Assembly (NCBI GenBank): GCA_033763755.1
Contig: JANRJX010000075.1
Span: 47,548 to 111,547 of the forward strand
DNA length: 64,000 nucleotides
Direction of reading: 5' to 3'
DNA from: Chloroflexota bacterium
Lineage (GTDB): Bacteria > Chloroflexota > Anaerolineae > Aggregatilineales > Phototrophicaceae
Under the pieces are notes generated by a model. The model was given only the letters and a program-made list of their open reading frames with translations, had not been told where the DNA came from and made no database searches. Positions 18,473-52,994 of this stretch are shown piece after piece (within the stretch, counting starts at the first letter, position 1; every line of letters starts with the position of its first letter). Position numbers and translations under genes: made by a program.

Positions 18473-19468
18473 CTACGCCTTAGGTGAAGACGAAATGCCG
18501 AGTCGCTTCATTTCGTATGGCAATAGCTCACGCATTCCAGCTTCCAGCGAGCGCGGGTTGTAACCCAGTTCGCGCTTCGCTTTCGCATTGCTGCCGATGT
18601 ATGTGGCGTTCATGCTGCGGAGCGTTTCGCTCGCGAACATCTCTGGCATCGGCACCACTTTCTCGACAACGCCCATCACGCCCGCCATGAGCGACACCAT
18701 CCCTGCGCCTGCGCGCATTCCCGGCGCTCGCACACCTGTGATGCGTTCTGCAAGGGCAATCGCCTCTTCCATGCGCGCGATTTCGCCGCAGATGATATAG
18801 CTTTCGCCCACCTTGCCCTTTTCCATCGCCAGAATATGCCCTTCTACAATGTCATCGACATGTGCCCAGGCATATGCCGCGACGGTCGGCAGCATCGGCA
18901 ATTTACCTTGCAGGTATTGCCCCATCGTTTCGCCTGCCAGACTGGTATCCCCCGGTCCGTAGACCAGTCCCGGCTGTACAATCACCAGTGGCAATCCGGC
19001 GCGCATCATCGGTACTGCCACATCAAAATGCGCCAGTGACTTGGTGCGGTCATATTCACTGTCGAAATGAGCAGGGGGAGCAATCGTCTCGTCGGCAATC
19101 TTGCCGTGCGTGTTGCCGTAAATCGCCAACGTGCTGGTGTAAACACCTTTGGGTATCTGCAACTCGCGCATGACCTCCAGCACATTGCGCGTGCCATTGA
19201 CGTTGATGTCATGTGCCATCGTCTTGTCACGCGCGCCGACTTTGTACCAGGCTGCGACATGAAAGACACCATCCACGCCTGTCATCGGGGCGCGCAGCGT
19301 TTCTTTTTCGGTAATGTCACCTTTGTGAACTTCGATGCCGAGTTCACGCAGATCGCCCGCTTTACCCGGATTGCGCGCAATCGTGACGACGGTATGCCCA
19401 CGTTTGACAAGCTCACGTGCCAGCTTGCCGCCGATAAATCCGGTTGCACCCGTTACAAAGTACTTCAT
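18473..19468 (-). CDS. NAD-dependent epimerase/dehydratase family protein (extended SDR)
   Basis: Rossmann motif MKYFVTGATGFIGGKLAREL. 331 aa with an extended-SDR pattern (dihydroflavonol-reductase/HpnA-like). Confidence 0.8.
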   Translation of the reverse strand: MKYFVTGATGFIGGKLARELVKRGHTVVTIARNPGKAGDLRELGIEVHKGDITEKETLRAPMTGVDGVFHVAAWYKVGARDKTMAHDINVNGTRNVLEVMRELQIPKGVYTSTLAIYGNTHGKIADETIAPPAHFDSEYDRTKSLAHFDVAVPMMRAGLPLVIVQPGLVYGPGDTSLAGETMGQYLQGKLPMLPTVAAYAWAHVDDIVEGHILAMEKGKVGESYIICGEIARMEEAIALAERITGVRAPGMRAGAGMVSLMAGVMGVVEKVVPMPEMFASETLRSMNATYIGSNAKAKRELGYNPRSLEAGMRELLPYEMKRLGISSSPKA

Positions 19469-19494
19469 ATATCCCCTCTTTCGGTAAACGCCAA

Positions 19495-19542
19495 GACGCC
19501 ATGGACGCCAAGAAATGATTCCTACTTGGCGTCCATGGCGTC
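19495..19542 (-). terminator. Perfect 18-bp stem-loop between the SAF oxidoreductase and SDR genes
   Basis: gacgccatggacgccaag (19495-19512), a 12-nt loop, then cttggcgtccatggcgtc (19525-19542). On the minus strand it is followed by ttggcgttt. Confidence 0.6.
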
Positions 19543-19586
19543 CTAGCGTTTCTGATTGACTAACACATTATGGCGCGAATTTGTGG

Positions 19587-20885
19587 TTATGCCAGCGCCG
19601 TGGCGAAGTGCGCCTGCTGTTCGGCATAGAGTTTGTCGATCAGCCGTCCTGCGGGAATTTCGACATCATCAAATGTCAGATGTGTGTCTTTCGGCAGGTC
19701 ACGCTTGACACGACAGCCTTCTGCCAACCCGATGGGCAGCAGCCGTTCGCGCTGAACGACATCGCTGTTTTCCGCCTCGCCGTACATGGTGTAGCCGCCC
19801 AGATAATCCAGTTCGTCGCCCGCTTTCAGGTCGATCTTCGCGGTTGTAATGACCTCGACAACCGGCGCGCCCAGCGGCGTAATCACATAGTCTTCTAGCA
19901 GCGCTACACGGGCAATCGACAGTGGCACTTCAAAGTGGCACAGATGGTAGGGCTGGTAGAAGCTGTACAGCGGACCTTCGCCCAGCTTGTAGAGGTTCAG
20001 GTAGTGGCGCTGTTTCGGGTCGTCATGGGTAGCGAGGACGAACACGCCGGGCGATGGTTTGCTGCCGACGACGTAATCGACAATACCCCCGTGCGACTTG
20101 AGCATATCGATGTCATATCGCTTGGTCAGCTCGTCAATATGTCCATCATGATTGTAGCCAAGCATCCCGCGTTTAGCGACACGCATTCCGGTGGCGTTCG
20201 CGACGAGTGCCTGTTCATAGGAAATTTTCGTCCCATCAGCAAAGCTTGTTACCATTGATGGGTTTTGCCCCCACTTTTCGGCAAAGCCTTTCTGTGTGGT
20301 CGGGTTGCGGTACGGGTCTTGCAAGCCCTTGATATTGCCGCAGAGCAACGGGGTGAGACCCAAACCCTTGACGAAGCGGTAGACATTCATTTCGACGCCC
20401 GGTTGGTCGCCATCGCTACCGCTGAAGATGACCCCCGCGCGTTCGGCATAGACTTTGAGCAAGGGGCCGACTGTGCCGTCGAGTTCGGCATTCATCGAGA
20501 CCATGTCCTTGCCGCATTCGATTGCCTTCATGGTCAGGTGTGCGCCAAACTCCAATGCACCCGTGATGTCAAGCACCAGGTCAATATTGTCTGCCTCGCA
20601 CAGCAAGTGAGCATTGTCCGTAACCGCAGGACGGTGTTGATCGATGGCAGCTTCAAGCGCGGTCACACTGTCTACTGTGACGACGTTTTCGACTCCGGCA
20701 TAGGCATAGGCGTCGGCAGCTTTGGCGAGTGTACGATTAGCAATCGCAACCAGTTCGATGCCGTGAACCGAGTTGATGATCTGGTTGGCGATACCGCGTG
20801 CCATAAAGCCCGCGCCTGCCATTCCCACACGAATTCGTTTACCTTCTGCTGCATATTTTTCGAGCGCGGCGCTGGCAATTTGCAT
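19587..20885 (-). CDS. NAD(P)-binding oxidoreductase with C-terminal SAF domain (COG4091-like 'homoserine dehydrogenase-like')
   Basis: Start at ATG 20885 with AGGAGA 8 nt upstream. Rossmann motif IRVGMAGAGFMARGIANQI and a SAF-like C-terminus (AKIDLKAGDELD.LGGYTMYGEAE). The 499-aa track ORF overruns into the upstream epimerase gene. Confidence 0.7.
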   Translation of the reverse strand: MQIASAALEKYAAEGKRIRVGMAGAGFMARGIANQIINSVHGIELVAIANRTLAKAADAYAYAGVENVVTVDSVTALEAAIDQHRPAVTDNAHLLCEADNIDLVLDITGALEFGAHLTMKAIECGKDMVSMNAELDGTVGPLLKVYAERAGVIFSGSDGDQPGVEMNVYRFVKGLGLTPLLCGNIKGLQDPYRNPTTQKGFAEKWGQNPSMVTSFADGTKISYEQALVANATGMRVAKRGMLGYNHDGHIDELTKRYDIDMLKSHGGIVDYVVGSKPSPGVFVLATHDDPKQRHYLNLYKLGEGPLYSFYQPYHLCHFEVPLSIARVALLEDYVITPLGAPVVEVITTAKIDLKAGDELDYLGGYTMYGEAENSDVVQRERLLPIGLAEGCRVKRDLPKDTHLTFDDVEIPAGRLIDKLYAEQQAHFATALA

Positions 20886-20898
20886 CTGACTATTTCTC

Positions 20899-21435
20899 CT
20901 AACGTACCGCTTCAACCAGCGGCCATTGCGCATCTTTACTTGAGACAATACTGACGGGGAGGGGCCAGTCAATTTTGAAGGCGGGGTCATCGTAACGATA
21001 ACCACGTTCTGTACCTGGCGTGTAAAACTCGCCGACGAGGTAAATGACTTCTGTGTTGTCTTCGAGCGTTTGGAATCCGTGCGCAAACATCTCCGGGATA
21101 TAGAGCGCGCGATGATTATCCGCCGTCAGTTCAACGCCAATATGCTGCATAAATGTCGGAGACTCTGGACGCATGTCAATGATCACGTCATAGATGGCTC
21201 CCCGCATGACGCGGATGAACTTGGTTTCCGGCGCGGGTGCAACCTGCATGTGCATCCCGCGCAGTGTGCCGCGTGTGTGATTAAACGAAATATTCGCCTG
21301 GGCAATGGTCGTCTTCAATCCGCGTTCAGCGAATTCGTTGGCGCAAAATGCGCGTGTGAAGAAACCACGCTCATCACTGCGCGGCTCAATATCGACTATG
21401 AAGGCACCGGAAAGCTTTGTTTCGCCAAACTTCAT
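20899..21435 (-). CDS. rfbC: dTDP-4-dehydrorhamnose 3,5-epimerase family (RmlC-like cupin)
   Basis: 178-aa ORF with RmlC motifs: FIVDIEPRSDERGFFTRAF, GTLRGMHMQ, KFIRVMRGAIYDVIIDMRPESPTF, LYIPEMFAHGFQTLEDNTEVIY. Confidence 0.8.
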   Translation of the reverse strand: MKFGETKLSGAFIVDIEPRSDERGFFTRAFCANEFAERGLKTTIAQANISFNHTRGTLRGMHMQVAPAPETKFIRVMRGAIYDVIIDMRPESPTFMQHIGVELTADNHRALYIPEMFAHGFQTLEDNTEVIYLVGEFYTPGTERGYRYDDPAFKIDWPLPVSIVSSKDAQWPLVEAVR

Positions 21436-45791: not shown

Positions 45792-47039
45792 CTATATCGG
45801 CTTGGTCACGCGATCAGCGCGCAACTGCTTGTACAGTCCGGTCACGCCGGGGTGCATCTGCTCGTGGGCGGCTTCGCGCCAGGCAGGGGAGGCGAAGTCT
45901 TCGATTTTGATGGTCTGATAGCCACTCTTGACCCAGCCTTCACGAATCGATGGGTCGCCATTATTGGGCAAGAAGATGAAGCTGACTTCGCTTTGTAACT
46001 GGCTGGCGTATTCTGCGATGCTTTCCGACAGCGCATGGATCACATCGACATACGGCGCATCGGGCGCAATCACGACCTCGTCAATATTGGTGATCAGATT
46101 TTCTACCTGCCAGCCTGCCACGCCGATCAGGTTATTGGCGGCATCCTGTGCCAGCAGATAACTCTTCTGACCAAATGCCAGCATGATATCCATACGGCTT
46201 ACGTCTTTGCCTGCATGTTTGGACATGAACTCAGCGATCTGTGCAGCGTTGTTTGGCGTTCCGCGTCGTGCGTGAATGCTGCCCACGACCATGGGCTGCT
46301 CGTCGGTGATGCGGGCTGGTGCGGCAGGCGGCACTGGCGGCGCGGCAGGTGCAGGGGCAGCCGGAGTACGAGCTGCCGCCGGAGCCGCTGGCACGGTGGG
46401 AGCAGAAGGCGCAGACTTCGGGGCAGCGAAGATCGCATTCCAGGCGTCCTGTACCTGCTTCCAGGTACTATCGACATCGCCTGCGTTGTTGATAACGACC
46501 TGCGCCCGCTTCAGCTTATCCGCCTGTGCGTTCTGCCCGGCAATACGCTGGCGGGCTTCGGATTCGCCCATCTTGCGGCTTTCCATTAGTCGCTTAAGTT
46601 GCAAATCTGGCGGTGCGTCTACGACCCAGATCGAGTTGCACATACTGGCGAGGTTGCCCTCTAGCAGCTTGATCGCTTCAACGACCACGACTCGCTGCTG
46701 TGCACGACTGACGAGCGCTTGAATGGCGCTGCCAACAATCGGATGAATGATGCCTTCGAGTGCCTGCATCGCTTCTGGCACGGCGAACGCCACCGCACCC
46801 AGCCGGGCGCGATTGATCTGCCCGTTGCTATCGACGACAAAGCGTCCGAAGGTTTCGATGATGGGTTTGTAGGCAGGTGCGCCGGGCGACATCGCCTGAT
46901 GCGTCAAGCCGTCAGCGTCAATGGTGTATGCGCCGAGATGCTGCAACATGCGTCTGACGACGCTTTTGCCGACGGCAATGTTGCCAGTCAAGCCGATGAT
47001 GTATTTGTCGTTTGAGCCAGCCACCGCGCTGCCCTCCAC
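45792..47039 (-). CDS. coaE: Dephospho-CoA kinase fused through a Pro/Ala linker to an uncharacterised C-terminal domain of about 170 aa
   Basis: CoaE N-terminus IIGLTGNIAVGKSVVRRML with a P-loop. Linker APKSAPSAPTVPAAPAAARTPAAPAPAAPPVPPAAPA. The C-terminal domain is possibly GNAT-like in fold but lacks an R/QxxGxG/A motif. Confidence 0.75.
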   Translation of the reverse strand: MEGSAVAGSNDKYIIGLTGNIAVGKSVVRRMLQHLGAYTIDADGLTHQAMSPGAPAYKPIIETFGRFVVDSNGQINRARLGAVAFAVPEAMQALEGIIHPIVGSAIQALVSRAQQRVVVVEAIKLLEGNLASMCNSIWVVDAPPDLQLKRLMESRKMGESEARQRIAGQNAQADKLKRAQVVINNAGDVDSTWKQVQDAWNAIFAAPKSAPSAPTVPAAPAAARTPAAPAPAAPPVPPAAPARITDEQPMVVGSIHARRGTPNNAAQIAEFMSKHAGKDVSRMDIMLAFGQKSYLLAQDAANNLIGVAGWQVENLITNIDEVVIAPDAPYVDVIHALSESIAEYASQLQSEVSFIFLPNNGDPSIREGWVKSGYQTIKIEDFASPAWREAAHEQMHPGVTGLYKQLRADRVTKPI

Positions 47040-47125: not shown

Positions 47126-49573
47126 CTATTCGGCGCGCGCCAGCACAATCCCGTCCATGCCAGACAACGTGATCTCGGTAACGGGTGTGCCATCGTTGAA
47201 GCGGGCGCGCGATTGCACGTAGATGGCGTCTGCCACACAGGGCGCACTGCCATCACAACGAAGCCGCACGAATGCACCAGGCGTGAGCGTAACTTCGCCG
47301 ATGACATGCCAGCGATCACCATTGACGCGCTGGTCAATCGTTGCACTTGCCACGACCTGATCACCTTGTATGACTTCGTAAATGACCGCGCCATTCCATG
47401 CCATCGCTTCTGGTGCGGCGGGGAACCATGCAGAGATCGTGTAGGTATCTTCAGCAGGGATCGCCAGTTCCCAGCGCGCCTCTCCCTCCAAAGCCTGATG
47501 AACTCCATCACCCCAGTCATGATAAAACGGTGGAATTGCCAGCCACTTCTCGGTGCTGTAGTCGGCTGTAAACCAACCGTCGCTCACGCTAAAGCCGGCG
47601 TCGTTATCATCCACAATATACTGGTAACGTGGTGCCTGATTCCCCATCAGGCGGCGGAAACCGGGAGCAACGGGGATAGTCACCGGAGCGTCGTTGGGGT
47701 TGACCAGCACCAGACCATTGTCAAATTCGCGTTGCATGTAGTAAGGTGCGCTTTCGACCATCTCAATGTTATCGAGCCAGATATTCCCCATCTGATTGCC
47801 GAAGTGGAACAACAGACGAGCTTCATCGGTCGTAAGGTTAGCGCGCCAGTAAAGGACGAACTGCTGCCATTCTCCGGTGACTCCCACCATTTGGTCTAAA
47901 CCATAATTATCCCATTCGGGTGCGCTCTTCTGGACGGTGACGTTCATATTGCGCGGCGCATCACTGCGCGCCCAAAAACGTGTTTCATAAATGGTTCCCT
48001 CGGTGACTTCGAGGTCAAATTGTGCGAGTTGAATGATGAAACTGGCCCCCAACGCTTCCGTTACCGCGATACGGGCGGCAGTGCTGCCGTCTGGACCTGC
48101 ACCGATTTCGCGCGTCAGGTCAGCGGCGTAGCCGTCATCTACCTCATCACCATCCCAGAAGTTCCATGTTCCTTCAACGACGTTCTCGAAGCCGCCGTTG
48201 ATGATGCTGTCGGTGGTATCGACGGTGACAGGCAGCAGGACTTGCTCGGCGGACGCGAGAGGGTAGCCCAAGTCATGGTCGAGTTCGTCATAGTGCCAAC
48301 GATTGCCATGATAGGCATCGCCAAACTCATGTGTGAAGTACCCCTCCTGCATCAGTGTAGTTGCCAATCCAAAACGCATATATGGATAGTAGGTGCGCGC
48401 GAATTCGAGAGTTGCTTCCGGGACGAAGCCGTCGAGTGGCGTGTACCCATATCCATACGAGATCTCAATCGGGATCGACGACTCCATCAGCGTCAGCGGC
48501 GGAGAGAGAGGTAGTGTCAGCCAATCGGTGTACGTTGCCCACAGCTCACCAAATGTTTGTTGTCCCTCAATCACTTCCGGAAGATCAAAAGTTATGCCAG
48601 CGCCATTAAAGATCTGCTGCACTTCCACGTCCTGTACTTGCATCCAATGTCCCATGAATAGTGCATGTGGCAGCAGCCCGCGCAGCGTTCGCAGGAAATG
48701 CAGCACACCTGCGCGCCAAGCGACGTCAAATACGCCTTCATCGTCCTTTATCCCGTCCTGGTCGCTGTCGTAGGGGAACGGGCTATCGTAGATATCTGCA
48801 TCCTGCCACGATTGACTCATGTAGACATTATCCAGGAAGATGCCGTCGTACATCCAATCGTTCTCGTTGAACTGAGCATATGCTCGCAGTGCCCAGTACT
48901 CTGCAATATCGAGGCGTGTCATGTTGAGCCGCCACGCACCGGGCCAGACTTCGACGCGATTACCTTCGGTATCGAGCAGGAAGTATTCATCTGGTACATT
49001 GTCTGCTTCAATCGCTTCAACGGCGTTCCATCCTGCGAGAATCTGAACATCAGGGTTCATATTGCGCAGTTCAGTCGCCTGACTCGGTGTGAATTCGGCA
49101 TTCAGCCACAGGTCGATCTCGGCGTCATCCTGACCAATACCATCCGCGCGGTACTGCCACGAGCCATCGAGATTGCCCAGGCGCGGGAATGACGGGTTGA
49201 ACGTGGACAGTACGCGGTAACGCAGATGCAGCAAGTCATCCGGACGGGGCGCGCAGCGGATAAAGACTTCGTTGACGACGGTACGATCCGGGTTAAGCCC
49301 TTCGATCACGGTCGAATGTTGCGTGTTGTTGGTGCTGACAAAGGGGGTCATCGCGTCAATCGGCGGTGATGCGCCGAGGGCATAGTGACAGGTGGCGGTT
49401 TCCTCTGTCGTAAGGATGACCTCAACGTTGGTGGTTCCAGGAGGCAGCAGTGTGCTGGGGGTGAGCGCACGCAGCCAACCGCCGCCTGCGAAGTCAACAG
49501 TGGGTTGTGCCTGTGCAGCACTTGCGGTTAAGAGCAGCAGTGTGAGCATAACAAACAAGAAGCGCCAACGCAT
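47126..49573 (-). CDS. Secreted multidomain putative glycoside hydrolase (GH114/GHL-type TIM barrel) with a CBM4/9-like module
   Basis: Signal MRWRFLFVMLTLLLLTASAAQAQ. A barrel-like segment contains DGIFLDNVYMSQSW. A CBM-like segment contains IINGGFENVVEGTWNFW. A C-terminal beta domain follows. Start at ATG 49573; the longest ORF begins at TTG 49585. Confidence 0.5.
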   Translation of the reverse strand: MRWRFLFVMLTLLLLTASAAQAQPTVDFAGGGWLRALTPSTLLPPGTTNVEVILTTEETATCHYALGASPPIDAMTPFVSTNNTQHSTVIEGLNPDRTVVNEVFIRCAPRPDDLLHLRYRVLSTFNPSFPRLGNLDGSWQYRADGIGQDDAEIDLWLNAEFTPSQATELRNMNPDVQILAGWNAVEAIEADNVPDEYFLLDTEGNRVEVWPGAWRLNMTRLDIAEYWALRAYAQFNENDWMYDGIFLDNVYMSQSWQDADIYDSPFPYDSDQDGIKDDEGVFDVAWRAGVLHFLRTLRGLLPHALFMGHWMQVQDVEVQQIFNGAGITFDLPEVIEGQQTFGELWATYTDWLTLPLSPPLTLMESSIPIEISYGYGYTPLDGFVPEATLEFARTYYPYMRFGLATTLMQEGYFTHEFGDAYHGNRWHYDELDHDLGYPLASAEQVLLPVTVDTTDSIINGGFENVVEGTWNFWDGDEVDDGYAADLTREIGAGPDGSTAARIAVTEALGASFIIQLAQFDLEVTEGTIYETRFWARSDAPRNMNVTVQKSAPEWDNYGLDQMVGVTGEWQQFVLYWRANLTTDEARLLFHFGNQMGNIWLDNIEMVESAPYYMQREFDNGLVLVNPNDAPVTIPVAPGFRRLMGNQAPRYQYIVDDNDAGFSVSDGWFTADYSTEKWLAIPPFYHDWGDGVHQALEGEARWELAIPAEDTYTISAWFPAAPEAMAWNGAVIYEVIQGDQVVASATIDQRVNGDRWHVIGEVTLTPGAFVRLRCDGSAPCVADAIYVQSRARFNDGTPVTEITLSGMDGIVLARAE

Positions 49574-49613
49574 AATTGACTCCAATGCCCATGAACCGGA
49601 TAGTCATTTAGAC

Positions 49614-49629: not shown

Positions 49630-49657
49630 GAGTTGCAGTGACACAAAAGAATCAAAA

Positions 49658-49683
49658 CAGGGCGCCTAGTGCGCCCCGTTTTT
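49658..49683. terminator. Rho-independent-type terminator after efp
   Basis: gggcgc-ctagt-gcgccc stem, flanked by aaaac on the 5' side and gttttt on the 3' side. On the minus strand the hairpin is followed by tgttttgattctttt. Confidence 0.65.
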
Positions 49684-49700: not shown

Positions 49701-50258
49701 CTACGCACGCCCGACATAGGAGCCGTCGCGCGTATCGACCTTGATCGTCTCGCCTTCGTTGATGAAAATCGGCACCTGCACGCTCAGACCGGTCTCGGTC
49801 TTGACCTTCTTGTTGACGCTGCCAGCCGAGTCGCCGACGACAGCGACTTCTGCTTCCGCAACCGTATAGGTCATGGTCGTCGGCAGCACATAGTCAATCG
49901 GCTTGCCTTCAAAGACGCGCAGTTCGAGTTCCATGTTTTCCTTCAGGTAGAAAATGTCGTCACCGAAGAGCGCATGTGCCGCCTCATACTGCTCATACGT
50001 CTGCTTGTTCATGAAGTGGAGCAGGTCACCGTCATCATACAGGTATTCGCACGGCTCTTGCTCGACATACAGGTCATCCAGCTTTTCTTCGGCATCGAAG
50101 ATTTTGTTGACGGTATTGCCCGTGCTGAGGTCAAGAAGCTGTGTGTCCATATAGGCAGTGCCGCGCCCCGGCTTGTTATACTTGGTCTTGAGTACGCGCA
50201 TCAGCTTGCCGTCAACACGGAGCGTTACGCCCTTCTTCAAATCGCCGCCTGGAATCAT
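49701..50258 (-). CDS. efp: Elongation factor P family protein with Arg at the loop tip (KPGRG)
   Basis: 185-aa ORF with EF-P three-domain length and motifs (DLKKGVTLRVDGKLMRV, YNKPGRGTAYM, ...VQVPIFINEGETIKVDTRDGSYVGRA). The R32 codon CGC is at 50163-50165. Confidence 0.85.
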   Translation of the reverse strand: MIPGGDLKKGVTLRVDGKLMRVLKTKYNKPGRGTAYMDTQLLDLSTGNTVNKIFDAEEKLDDLYVEQEPCEYLYDDGDLLHFMNKQTYEQYEAAHALFGDDIFYLKENMELELRVFEGKPIDYVLPTTMTYTVAEAEVAVVGDSAGSVNKKVKTETGLSVQVPIFINEGETIKVDTRDGSYVGRA

Positions 50259-50297
50259 TGATCAGTTCCCCACGTTTGTTTAACACGTTAGCGAGCC

Positions 50298-50303
50298 ATT
50301 ATA
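50298..50303 (-). promoter_or_regulatory. Perfect TATAAT hexamer in the 54-nt gap upstream of efp
   Basis: The plus strand reads attata, which is TATAAT on the minus strand, about 40 nt upstream of the efp ATG. Only a weak -35-like sequence is visible. Confidence 0.3.
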
Positions 50304-50312
50304 GCAGACGAG

Positions 50313-51350
50313 TTAACTTTGTTTCCAGACCTCAACCTGTGGGTTACGCGGCGCAGCAGCATAGCGATAGCCGCCCCAATCAACCCATGACATGCCAAAT
50401 CGTGCAACATGGGCGCGCATCGCCGCCTCACAATCGCTGATCATCGCGTCTGCTTCTGTCAGCAGCCGGGCGTAGCGTGGGTCCCTTTGAGCGCGCTGCC
50501 AAGACTCCTCGCTCGGTGCAGCGTGCAGCGCGCTACGGCGCTCACCGGGTATTTTGAGTGAGTAGTGCAGATGCCGTTCGATGACGCGGCGCACACTCTC
50601 ATGGTCAAAGATCGGCGGGCAAAGACGATAGCCTGCTGCGTCCTCTATCGGAATGCAGAGCGCGGGACTGCCAATTTCGGTCAGTACACGGTCAATTTCA
50701 AGATCATCTTCCCAGGCATGGGTATCGACAGCATTCAGGACTGCTGCGCAGAGTCCGCCGGGAATTGCACCCAGCTTACCCCAAAAGCCTTGTCCGCCGT
50801 TCTCACCTATGCGCGCTAACGGTTTGCGGTCAAAGGCGGCGTTGTGCAGGTCAATAACGTCAGTTAGGATATTTGCAGCGGCTACGAGACTGTGCGTATG
50901 CCGCGTCGTCAGGCTGAAGGGGCGGTCTCCCGTGCGCTCCATCGCTGCTTCCATTATGGCGCGTGTGTAAACAGCATCATGTGCAGGCATTACCAGCAAG
51001 TCCGGCTGAGTCGCGATGGCGGCGCGCAATGCGGCCAGAATGCGCACCCAACGGTCGCTCATGTCCATTTGCTGCCAACTCTGCGGCGCTTCCCATTCAC
51101 AGCGATTTGGCGTGTCGGCTTGGGGAGCGCACGGCTGCGGATTGACGATGACGGACTGTATCGTCAGGCGTGGGAAGTCGGCAAGCGGTGGTTGCAAGCT
51201 GGCGCGGGTGGCGTCGCTATCGCAGATAAGCAGGAGTGTATCGCGGTCGCTCAGCGTTGCCAGACGTGCACGAAACGCATAGTCAAACACCGCCCGCGCT
51301 CGTTCATCCGTCGGGCGCGGGCGGTACATCAGCTCGGCGTGGAGGAGCAT
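50313..51350 (-). CDS. Cytoplasmic hypothetical protein, weakly GT-A (GT2-like) glycosyltransferase-like
   Basis: 345-aa ORF with no signal peptide or TM helix. Acidic motifs LLLICDSDA and LLVMPAHDAVY, plus AWEDDLEIDRVL reminiscent of the GT2 ED..L..R motif. The start ATG directly abuts the stop of the upstream hydrolase gene (TAGATG). Confidence 0.4.
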   Translation of the reverse strand: MLLHAELMYRPRPTDERARAVFDYAFRARLATLSDRDTLLLICDSDATRASLQPPLADFPRLTIQSVIVNPQPCAPQADTPNRCEWEAPQSWQQMDMSDRWVRILAALRAAIATQPDLLVMPAHDAVYTRAIMEAAMERTGDRPFSLTTRHTHSLVAAANILTDVIDLHNAAFDRKPLARIGENGGQGFWGKLGAIPGGLCAAVLNAVDTHAWEDDLEIDRVLTEIGSPALCIPIEDAAGYRLCPPIFDHESVRRVIERHLHYSLKIPGERRSALHAAPSEESWQRAQRDPRYARLLTEADAMISDCEAAMRAHVARFGMSWVDWGGYRYAAAPRNPQVEVWKQS

Positions 51351-52994
51351 CTACTCAAAACCCGGTATCGGATTCGGTGGGATGCCGCACCAGTCCTGCA
51401 ACTGCACATCGTGACGGAAAGCATCGTAGAGCATCCAGTATACCGGGCGTTCCGTGCTGCCTTGGTTGTTCACATCCACCGCGCAGCCGCCGCCTGGAAC
51501 GAGCATACTGTACGCCGCTCGCTCATCACGTCCGGTAATTAAGCCTGATAGCACAGCGAAATTTAGATTCCACAGCACTTTGACCCCAATGTCGCCGCGT
51601 TCTTGCGCGATCTGGATGGCACGAACGGTATAGCCGCCCTGCTGCCAGCGCGAATTGAACGCCATCCAGGGCTGCGGCGGTTCGAGCGGATAGCCATCCC
51701 AGCTGGCGTAACCGAACTCGGTGATCCACATTTGCACATCCTGATGCCCGTTGGCGTTCATGATTTCGCGGTAGGCGTCGAGTGTCTCCAGATAGAAGAA
51801 GTGTGGATTGTCATCCCAGCCCCGCTCACCACAGCAGCGCGAGTCAGGCGCGTTGCCCCAACCGTAAGGGTGTGCACCGATGACGATATCGCGGAAGTTG
51901 CCCAGTCCGGCGGCGTACATCTGGCGCAGGAACTCGGTGTCATCCACTGAACCTTCAGAGTTACCCGTCGGGGCAAGCCCGGCGACGATCACAGTGATGT
52001 CTGGCGAATACGCGCGCACGGCACGATAGGCAGGCTCGAAAAGGCGCATGTAGCCTGCGCCTGTAAAGGGCAGCGTGCCTTGCCATTCGCGGATCAGGTT
52101 CGGCTCGTTCCAGATTTCTACGGCGTCGATATAGTCGCCGATGGTCGGGCGTTGCAACCCGGCGTTGAACTCTTCGAAAATAATCGTGATGAAGCGTGCG
52201 AGGGCATTCGGGTCATCGGGCGGTCCGTCTTCCGTCTGATTGCTGCGCGCCCAGGCAGGTGCTTTGACAACGCTGACCATGACACTGAAGCCGCGTCGCG
52301 CCGCATCTTCGAGATGCTGCTCGATACGGCGAAAGAACTCTGTGCCGCGCTCGTCCGGTCCGTTTGGCTGCATATCTCGCCAGGGCAACTGGACTTTGAT
52401 CCACTTGACGCCGAGGTTTTCGATGCGACCCATCGCTTCGTTCCAGTCTTCCTGCGACAGGTTGATGTCCAACTGGATGCCAACCAGATTCGGGTCCAGA
52501 TTGGGCAATGGAGCGAACGTCCCCTGCTGCGGTGGCTGTGTGGCTTCTGGCGCAACGGCGACGGCTGTGGCTTCGACGGGTGTTGCTGCAGCATCCGTGA
52601 CGGGTGGGGGTGCTGACGTGGGTGCCGAAGTTTCTGGAGCAGGAGGCAGAGTCGGCGGTACATAACCCGGTCCAATCAGCGGTCCAATAACCTGTGGACT
52701 GGCAGCCGGGGTGAACGTTACGACGGCTGCAACGGTAGGCGGCTGAGTCGGCACCATCGGTACAGTCGGGGCGTCAGGTGTGACGATGATGGGTGTTGAT
52801 TCTACAGGACTGACCGTCGCTGTTTCCGTCGGGGTCGCGCTGGCGGCCGCAATTGTCGGGTTGATCACGGTTGCGACGCTCGCCGCGCTGGTAGGCTGTG
52901 CTGTGGGTGTGACATAGACGATGATGGGGTCTTGCGGGACACATGCATTGAGCATGAAGGTGAGCAGGGCAATCAGGAGCAGTCTGGTTTTCAT
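51351..52994 (-). CDS. Lipoprotein glycoside hydrolase, clan GH-A (GH5-like) TIM barrel
   Basis: Lipobox MKTRLLLIALLTFMLNACVP, with a Pro/Thr/Ala tether of about 170 aa. Catalytic-type motifs are VEIWNEPN (acid/base) and WITEFGYAS (nucleophile). Confidence 0.7.
   Translation of the reverse strand: MKTRLLLIALLTFMLNACVPQDPIIVYVTPTAQPTSAASVATVINPTIAAASATPTETATVSPVESTPIIVTPDAPTVPMVPTQPPTVAAVVTFTPAASPQVIGPLIGPGYVPPTLPPAPETSAPTSAPPPVTDAAATPVEATAVAVAPEATQPPQQGTFAPLPNLDPNLVGIQLDINLSQEDWNEAMGRIENLGVKWIKVQLPWRDMQPNGPDERGTEFFRRIEQHLEDAARRGFSVMVSVVKAPAWARSNQTEDGPPDDPNALARFITIIFEEFNAGLQRPTIGDYIDAVEIWNEPNLIREWQGTLPFTGAGYMRLFEPAYRAVRAYSPDITVIVAGLAPTGNSEGSVDDTEFLRQMYAAGLGNFRDIVIGAHPYGWGNAPDSRCCGERGWDDNPHFFYLETLDAYREIMNANGHQDVQMWITEFGYASWDGYPLEPPQPWMAFNSRWQQGGYTVRAIQIAQERGDIGVKVLWNLNFAVLSGLITGRDERAAYSMLVPGGGCAVDVNNQGSTERPVYWMLYDAFRHDVQLQDWCGIPPNPIPGFE

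Follow-up and report, generated by a model that had tools for sequence, protein, structure and literature searches.

Three modifications of bacterial elongation factor P (EF-P) are listed in 2026 reviews, namely beta-lysylation, rhamnosylation of an arginine by EarP and 5-aminopentanolylation, with the unmodified PGKGP subfamily and EfpL as further classes (PMC12856214, PMC13602936), and in about half of bacterial genomes the EF-P is of a type outside the known modification routes (PMC13602936). Among the closest known systems is that of EarP, in which the arginine is at the tip of a seven-residue loop, a lineage-specific glycosyltransferase-type gene lies beside efp and the enzyme is co-distributed with one particular loop type; both earP and epmB typically adjoin efp (PMC11388002). 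A comparable arrangement is found in a 64,000 nt stretch of DNA, which is the window in what follows, from a Chloroflexota bacterium of the Phototrophicaceae (assembly GCA_033763755.1, contig JANRJX010000075.1, positions 47,548 to 111,547 of the forward strand), where efp is preceded by a gene for an orphan protein of 345 amino acids (aa) that is here called X345. The two systems also differ, with EarP being a glycosyltransferase of the GT-B fold that has its own Pfam family, an acceptor loop KSGRNAA and a range of Betaproteobacteria and some Gammaproteobacteria, whereas X345 is predicted to be GT-A-like in fold, lacks a family match, is accompanied by the loop KPGRGTA and is found in Chloroflexota.

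The EpmA/EpmB/EpmC system is similar in its K-P-G-x-G loop scaffold and in its modifier genes, which are often beside efp, but its tip residue is Lys34 and its enzymes are a lysyl-tRNA synthetase paralogue, an aminomutase and a hydroxylase, none of them GT-A. A likeness in the loop itself is seen in the Arg-tip EF-Ps of Thermus thermophilus, Thermotogota, D. radiodurans and H. aurantiacus, which have a seven-residue G-R-G loop with the arginine in the same column and lie outside the EarP, EfpL and PGKGP classes (PMC11388002, PMC12931083), the EF-P of Thermotogota having been described as an 'arginine type of unknown modification' (PMC11388002). They differ in having no accompanying X345 homologue, and the PGRG subfamily to which the EF-P of the window belongs has Pro30 and an invariant Tyr27. 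Seven-residue G-R-G Arg-tip EF-Ps outside the EarP and EfpL classes, such as those of T. thermophilus and Thermotogota, are already known, so that the original prediction, made from the sequence of the window, was right that the loop sequence is distinctive but went too far in holding that an Arg-tip PG-G scaffold fits no class.

Within one lineage of Chloroflexota, X345 and efp genes of the PGRG type are tightly linked in both their location and their distribution. From this linkage and a predicted fold X345 is put forward as a well-supported candidate, and not as a demonstrated system, for a new EF-P modifying enzyme other than EarP, most likely a glycosyltransferase of Arg32, to which a probability of roughly 0.5 is given. 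That the pair may constitute a fourth, independently evolved EF-P activation system in this lineage, with an orphan GT-A enzyme that glycosylates Arg32 or modifies it with a nucleoside diphosphate-activated donor, is proposed at a little short of even odds. The features of the locus on which this depends are as follows.

50313..51350, minus strand: X345, a soluble 345-aa orphan with a GT-A-like predicted fold, candidate EF-P modifier (structure prediction, synteny)
50259..50312, minus strand: X345-efp gap of 54 nt, without a terminator (coordinates of the open reading frames, ORFs)
49701..50258, minus strand: efp, encoding a 185-aa EF-P of the [KN]PGRG subfamily (three EF-P Pfam domains, TIGR00038)
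50154..50174, minus strand: codons of the seven-residue beta3-beta4 loop K29-P-G-R-G-T-A35 (model strands, alignment)
50163..50165, minus strand: Arg32 codon CGC, the loop tip and proposed acceptor (read directly in the DNA)

All genes of the efp locus are on the minus strand and X345 is the upstream neighbour of efp, the 54-nt same-strand spacing first reported agreeing with the coordinates. The two genes share a reading frame (49704-51350, minus strand), their starts being 1092 nt apart, and three of the 18 codons between them are stops. There is a single efp within the window.

The EF-P of the window is a genuine one. The three-domain architecture of KOW-like N domain, OB domain and C-terminal domain is complete (PF08207, PF01132 and PF09285), and with 203.1 bits the protein passes the cut-off of 185.8 for the NCBIfam efp equivalog TIGR00038, whilst it falls far below the equivalogs for EfpL/YeiP (105 bits against 216 for NF003392 and 99 against 264 for TIGR02178). 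The suggestion that it may be a divergent paralogue is ruled out by these scores. The loop stretch of the product reads ...KTKYNKPGRGTAYMDTQLLDL..., and R32 is the tip of a loop of normal length. In an AlphaFold model (predicted local distance difference test, pLDDT, 90.7, from an alignment of 55 subfamily members) strands occupy residues 18-28 and 36-43; because the first ends at 28 and the second resumes at 36, the loop is residues 29-35 with R32 central. A HMMER alignment that is free of gaps from the loop to solved EF-Ps pairs R32 with K32 of 6rk3 (KPGKGSA) and with R32 of the T. thermophilus EF-P 1ueb/4v6a (KLGRGGA). The claim that Arg32 stands at the position of the modified lysine is confirmed by the sequence, this alignment and the model, and an arginine that lies off the tip, which the original prediction had named as an outcome against it, is ruled out. 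Membership of the described classes was rejected on similar grounds: the loop lacks the two-residue extension of EfpL/YeiP, the tip arginine and the absence of a second proline in K-P-G-R-G-T-A do not fit the unmodified PGKGP subfamily, and P30 and G33 stand where EarP-type EF-Ps have serine and asparagine. R32 and Tyr27 are invariant and Pro30 is kept in the PGRG subfamily (R32 among 55 members), and of the 120 EF-P relatives that are nearest in the protein collection, 119 carry a [KN]PGRG loop.

Evidence for a connection between the two genes comes from their distribution. A scan seeded with X345, using peptide patterns and one genome per GTDB species, gave 75 loci, one of which is too short downstream to be counted. 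Among the remaining 74, efp is directly downstream of X345 on the same strand in 62 (84%), and all 62 of these linked EF-Ps have the [KN]PGRG loop. The median gap over 65 related loci is 54 nt and the pair is kept at identities down to ~35-40% for X345 and 54-60% for EF-P, with the other neighbours being shuffled, the next commonest real gene being found by ORF clustering in 24 of the 75 loci (<=32%). Clustering of all neighbouring ORFs gave no third conserved partner gene, and no polysaccharide or natural-product cluster surrounds X345 in any locus. Approached from the other side, 80 loci on metagenome contigs seeded with EF-P have X345 upstream in all three that carry a PGRG loop and in none of the 77 with loops such as KPGKGAA, KMGRGGA and KRARGGA. 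The X345 family is as narrow in its range as the PGRG EF-P subfamily. Phylogenetic profiling had been proposed with the original prediction, the idea being expected to fail if homologues of X345 were mostly found away from efp or with Lys-tip EF-Ps only. The adjacency in 62 of 74 loci, always with a [KN]PGRG loop, and the absence from all 77 controls point the other way.

Other genes are also found close to efp in related loci. A FabG-like short-chain dehydrogenase/reductase (SDR) lies ~1 kb downstream of efp in ~20 of the X345 loci (for example L010, 8298-9014), and in locus L160 (3647-5556) an SDR just downstream of efp is followed by a GT4 glycosyltransferase. The SDR was considered as YmfI, the EF-P 5-aminopentanone reductase, and rejected with 99 bits against a cut-off of 238 for NF047420 and higher scores to generic FabG-like models. 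Four metagenome loci with Arg-tip EF-Ps of the KMGRGGA or KRARGGA type (L079, L082, L109 and L111) have no glycosyltransferase neighbour, and in two of these (L109 and L111, KMGRGGA type) efp is followed by ORFs resembling accB and accC by their N-terminal sequence.

X345 itself is a member of a closed, lineage-restricted orphan family for which no distant relatives were found. A word-indexed search gave 219 homologues, of which the 33 with a name at source are all 'hypothetical protein', and those with a named organism are from metagenome-assembled genomes (MAGs) of Chloroflexota, Anaerolineae, Aggregatilineales, Phototrophicaceae or Limnocylindrales. When 1.84 billion representative proteins were searched with a profile of 49 members, only 43 clusters were obtained, the weak tail being fragments alone. 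All records named to phylum are Chloroflexota, bar a few loci labelled Pleurocapsa or Bacteroidetes. The latter (L024, L041, L048, L054 and L073, with the X345-efp pair or X345 alone) are in MAGs titled 'Bacteroidetes bacterium', 'Pleurocapsa minor' or 'uncultured Pleurocapsa sp.' and are likely to be mis-binned or mislabelled Chloroflexota contigs. Amongst the longer database homologues there are no natural fusions of X345 to EF-P, and the extra length is instead due to N-terminal start-site extensions or a frameshifted tail. With a peak 19-residue Kyte-Doolittle mean of only 1.26, X345 shows no sign of a membrane segment or of a signal peptide, the latter in line with the original prediction.

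Searches with X345 against Pfam, NCBIfam and PADLOC found no match, Pfam searches with 49 members gave no glycosyltransferase family, such as PF00535, even at E <= 5, and phmmer and profile searches of the PDB gave no glycosyltransferase and just MMS21 at E 0.05-0.6. Residues ~208-258 (50577-50729) have a weak, recurrent similarity to the SP-RING/MIZ zinc finger of MMS21/Nse2, with a zf-Nse Pfam match in five of the 49 members (best E 0.0034); as no conserved set of Cys/His ligands is evident, this likeness is probably due to chance.

It is the predicted structure that links X345 to glycosyltransferases. The AlphaFold model, built from the 49-member alignment, has a pLDDT of 93.7 and a predicted template modelling score (pTM) of 0.92, and when compared with the PDB by Foldseek it has 176 matches at E <= 0.001. 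The best are the GT-A glycosyltransferases COLGALT1, WrtF, PcManGT and TarP (E ~1e-6, probability 1.0), of which COLGALT1 (GLT25D1), a protein hydroxylysine galactosyltransferase, glycosylates a protein side chain. The first guess of a GT-A-like protein, a class with a single Rossmann-like alpha/beta/alpha domain, is supported by the structure prediction and these matches. The four differ from X345 in having just 7-15% identity to it and no sequence-profile relationship, and in lacking its family-specific features, an insertion at ~69-98 and a C-terminal helical/beta extension (250-345). X345 was also considered as an EarP and rejected, as it has no Pfam match and the listed Foldseek matches are GT-A enzymes and nucleotidyltransferases, not enzymes with the two Rossmann domains of GT-B, which agrees with the original view that it does not resemble EarP.

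The acidic motifs that had been reported are all located in X345, as CDSD (43-46), AHD (123-125) and WEDDLEIDR (213-221), and its topology is compatible with GT-A, with a strand at 38-43 followed by D/N-S, a strand at 118-122 followed by A-H-D, and E214-D215-D216 ~90 residues further on. The two sites most likely to be of importance to activity are:

50976..50984, minus strand: A123-H124-D125 after strand 118-122, putative GT-A DXD position (topology)
50688..50714, minus strand: W213-E-D-D-L-E-I-D-R221, with E214/D215/D216 as candidate catalytic-base residues (invariant columns)

On the model, H124/D125 would be the equivalent of the DXD motif and E214-D216 the equivalent of the catalytic base; the position of EDD, ~90 residues past the putative DXD position, may resemble that of the catalytic-base region in GT2 enzymes such as SpsA. 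There are 35 invariant columns over 49 diverse members of the family, including D125, E214, D215 and D216, and D125 and E214-D215-D216 are invariant too when X345 and EF-P of 22 syntenic loci are aligned as pairs. Invariant columns that include active-site acidic residues are a pattern typical of an active enzyme. They speak against X345 being a catalytically inactive protein of GT-A fold with a structural or regulatory role, whether associated with EF-P or unrelated to it; the variant metal motif and the orphan nature of the family, without detectable relatives, would fit such a protein, which is nevertheless considered very improbable.

Modification of an arginine by a GT-A enzyme is chemically feasible, as NleB/SseK are GT-A enzymes that glycosylate the guanidinium groups of arginine (PMC7199390, PMC5892559). 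These differ from X345 in being secreted type III effectors directed at host death-domain targets and have no sequence similarity to it, and the 50 listed Foldseek matches of X345 do not include them. No paper was found in the literature that links a GT-A enzyme to EF-P.

If X345 does modify EF-P, it would act in the cytoplasm as a GT-A-fold transferase on the EF-P encoded directly downstream, with R32 as the putative acceptor. The [HQ][DE] motif after strand 4 (H124/D125) may bind the metal-diphosphate and the invariant E214-D215-D216 may supply the catalytic base, and the group attached would most likely be a sugar taken from a nucleotide-sugar donor. Extended by this group, the arginine side chain would reach the CCA end of the P-site tRNA, which would make the group the counterpart of rhamnose on EarP-type and of beta-lysine on EpmA-type EF-P.

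How the two genes are transcribed is of relevance to their linkage. The promoter and terminator scans gave two features:

50298..50327, minus strand: promoter-like site of efp, TGGAAA, 18 nt, TG-TATAAT (promoter scan, 10/12 consensus matches)
49654..49682, minus strand: strong intrinsic terminator after efp, with a 12-bp stem, seven G-C pairs and a T-rich tail (terminator scan)

The scan recovered the TATAAT at 50298-50303 that had suggested that efp can be transcribed alone; it is TG-extended, and the -35 hexamer TGGAAA lies within the coding end of X345. The gaps of loci L001-L078 repeatedly contain an extended -10-like element (TGnTAnAAT), ~35-50 nt before efp; of the 65 related loci, 50 have a -10-like hexamer in the gap and just three a T-run, and the scan found no terminator between X345 and efp. 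To judge by these sequence elements, efp probably has a separate promoter in overlap with the 3' end of X345, and because the promoter-like element is conserved in the gap the pair is no simple obligate operon. A promoter of its own would suit an abundant factor encoded beside a low-copy enzyme.

Several observations weigh against X345 as a glycosyltransferase of Arg32, of which some concern the fold and others the linkage. The assignment to GT-A depends on the predicted structure alone because no sequence search placed X345 in a known family, and an hhalign comparison of the X345 profile with the GT2 enzyme from locus L063 gave a probability of 3.8%. The Foldseek template modelling scores are modest for this predicted model (0.38-0.46), the matches also include the nucleotidyltransferases KdsB, GlmU and GMPPA/B, which have the same fold, and the DXD position holds the variant motif [HQ][DE] (family consensus PA[HQ][DE]A). 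The matches to nucleotidyltransferases, the variant motif and the absence of a sequence match to any glycosyltransferase family would be compatible with X345 acting on EF-P in another manner, by the transfer of a nucleotide or other activated group, by modification of another residue or by synthesis of a donor for a second, unlinked enzyme. As the best structural matches are glycosyltransferases, the invariant EDD may resemble the base region of GT2 enzymes and the loci show no further conserved partner, such alternatives are thought improbable.

The linkage can also be read differently. The 62 linked loci have a single gene order and orientation, as expected if the linkage stems from one ancestral arrangement, and the promoter-like element across the 3' end of X345, with its -10-like hexamer in 50 of 65 gaps and, in the window, its -35 hexamer inside X345, could alone slow the separation of the two genes. 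A conserved neighbour of efp need not be a modifier, as illustrated by accB and accC beside efp of the KMGRGGA type. Nor does an arginine tip alone imply modification, since in E. coli no modification is needed for the Arg-tip EF-Ps of D. radiodurans and N. communis to function, whilst that of the Chloroflexota member Herpetosiphon aurantiacus barely worked in the same study (PMC12931083). X345 might thus be a GT-A glycosyltransferase with a substrate that has nothing to do with EF-P, be it a small molecule, a lipid or another protein, and would owe its place beside efp to ancestry and promoter overlap; EF-P would then be unmodified or be modified by other means. This is the alternative that deserves most attention, although it is regarded as less likely: the pair is kept in 84% of loci, compared with <=32% for other neighbours, despite deep divergence, X345 is confined to the one loop type, and it lies outside polysaccharide and natural-product clusters in every locus.

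Loci where the genes are apart bear on the same question. The adjacency has been lost in several lineages, given that 12 of the 74 X345 loci have room downstream yet no efp within 6 kb, and that four of six look-ups on long contigs seeded with EF-P (P0160, P0182, P0192 and P0228) have no adjacent X345, which is adjacent in the other two (P0141 and P0236). A single OLB15-like clade, whose members have the same alternative context, accounts for about half of the 12 unlinked loci. Such losses would fit an X345 that acts on an unrelated substrate. Against this, both genes are kept in each of the three unlinked genomes in which they can be traced to one assembly, namely OLB15 (X345 in L033, EF-P as P0160), the MAG labelled Pleurocapsa minor GSE-CHR-MK-17-07R (X345 in L041, EF-P as P0191) and GCA_964432445.1 (X345 on CAYSOC010000156.1, efp on CAYSOC010000033.1). 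That both genes persist once they are apart speaks for selection on their co-occurrence over simple physical hitch-hiking.

In two lineages in which efp lacks an adjacent X345, a conserved protein of ~285 aa is encoded directly downstream of efp in convergent orientation (L161, 3564-4433, and L162, 3599-4450, both minus strand). It has a Pro/Ala-rich N-terminal part and no Pfam match, and was rejected by comparison as a relative of X345.

Upstream of the pair in the window, the stop codon of a GH5-like ORF abuts the start codon of X345 (TAGATG), an observation of the original prediction that is borne out by the ORF coordinates:

51351..52994, minus strand: GH5-like ORF of 547 aa, Pfam Cellulase (Pfam)

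The 547-aa protein is apparently secreted and has a long Pro/Thr/Ala-rich linker. On the other side of the pair is a gene for an apparently secreted 819-aa protein (47126-49585, minus strand) with GHL15, CBM_4_9 and Golvesin_C domains, and both of these glycan-active genes are outside the conserved ORF clusters of related loci. Beyond the latter a dephospho-coenzyme A kinase (45792-47039, minus strand) has its CoaE domain at residues 13-189, followed by a Pro/Ala-rich linker and a C-terminal extension of ~225 aa for which there is no Pfam match.

A small cluster of sugar-nucleotide type at 18473-21435 (minus strand) consists of RmlC, an overlapping ORF for a DRL-type oxidoreductase and a nicotinamide adenine dinucleotide-dependent epimerase/dehydratase. 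The presence of the RmlC-like epimerase at 20899..21435 had been noted, and the ORF is indeed RmlC, dTDP-4-dehydrorhamnose 3,5-epimerase (dTDP_sugar_isom, E = 2.9e-63). As a clue to a rhamnose donor it was rejected, since it is 29 kb from efp in an unrelated context and carries no information on the donor sugar. Of the original case for X345 as a GT-A-like candidate modifier distinct from EarP, the linkage and the fold have held up, and the RmlC clue and the divergent paralogue have been set aside.

The pair bears on an acknowledged gap, in that no route has been assigned to the EF-P types of about half of bacterial genomes (PMC13602936, PMC11388002), and with only two genes involved the question is cheap to test. 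Should X345 turn out not to act on EF-P, the locus would still be instructive as a case in which synteny is deep but the genes are not functionally coupled. If it does, X345 would be a new enzyme family, possibly with a new arginine modification, and the first GT-A arginine-modifying enzyme to have a housekeeping bacterial target. It would provide an annotation for >200 'hypothetical proteins', some of them from Chloroflexota MAGs of wastewater and bioreactors (such as Ca. Flexifilum and OLB15). Arginine glycosylation of EF-P would then have had a second, convergent origin, and the activation of EF-P would have evolved convergently on both of the major glycosyltransferase folds.

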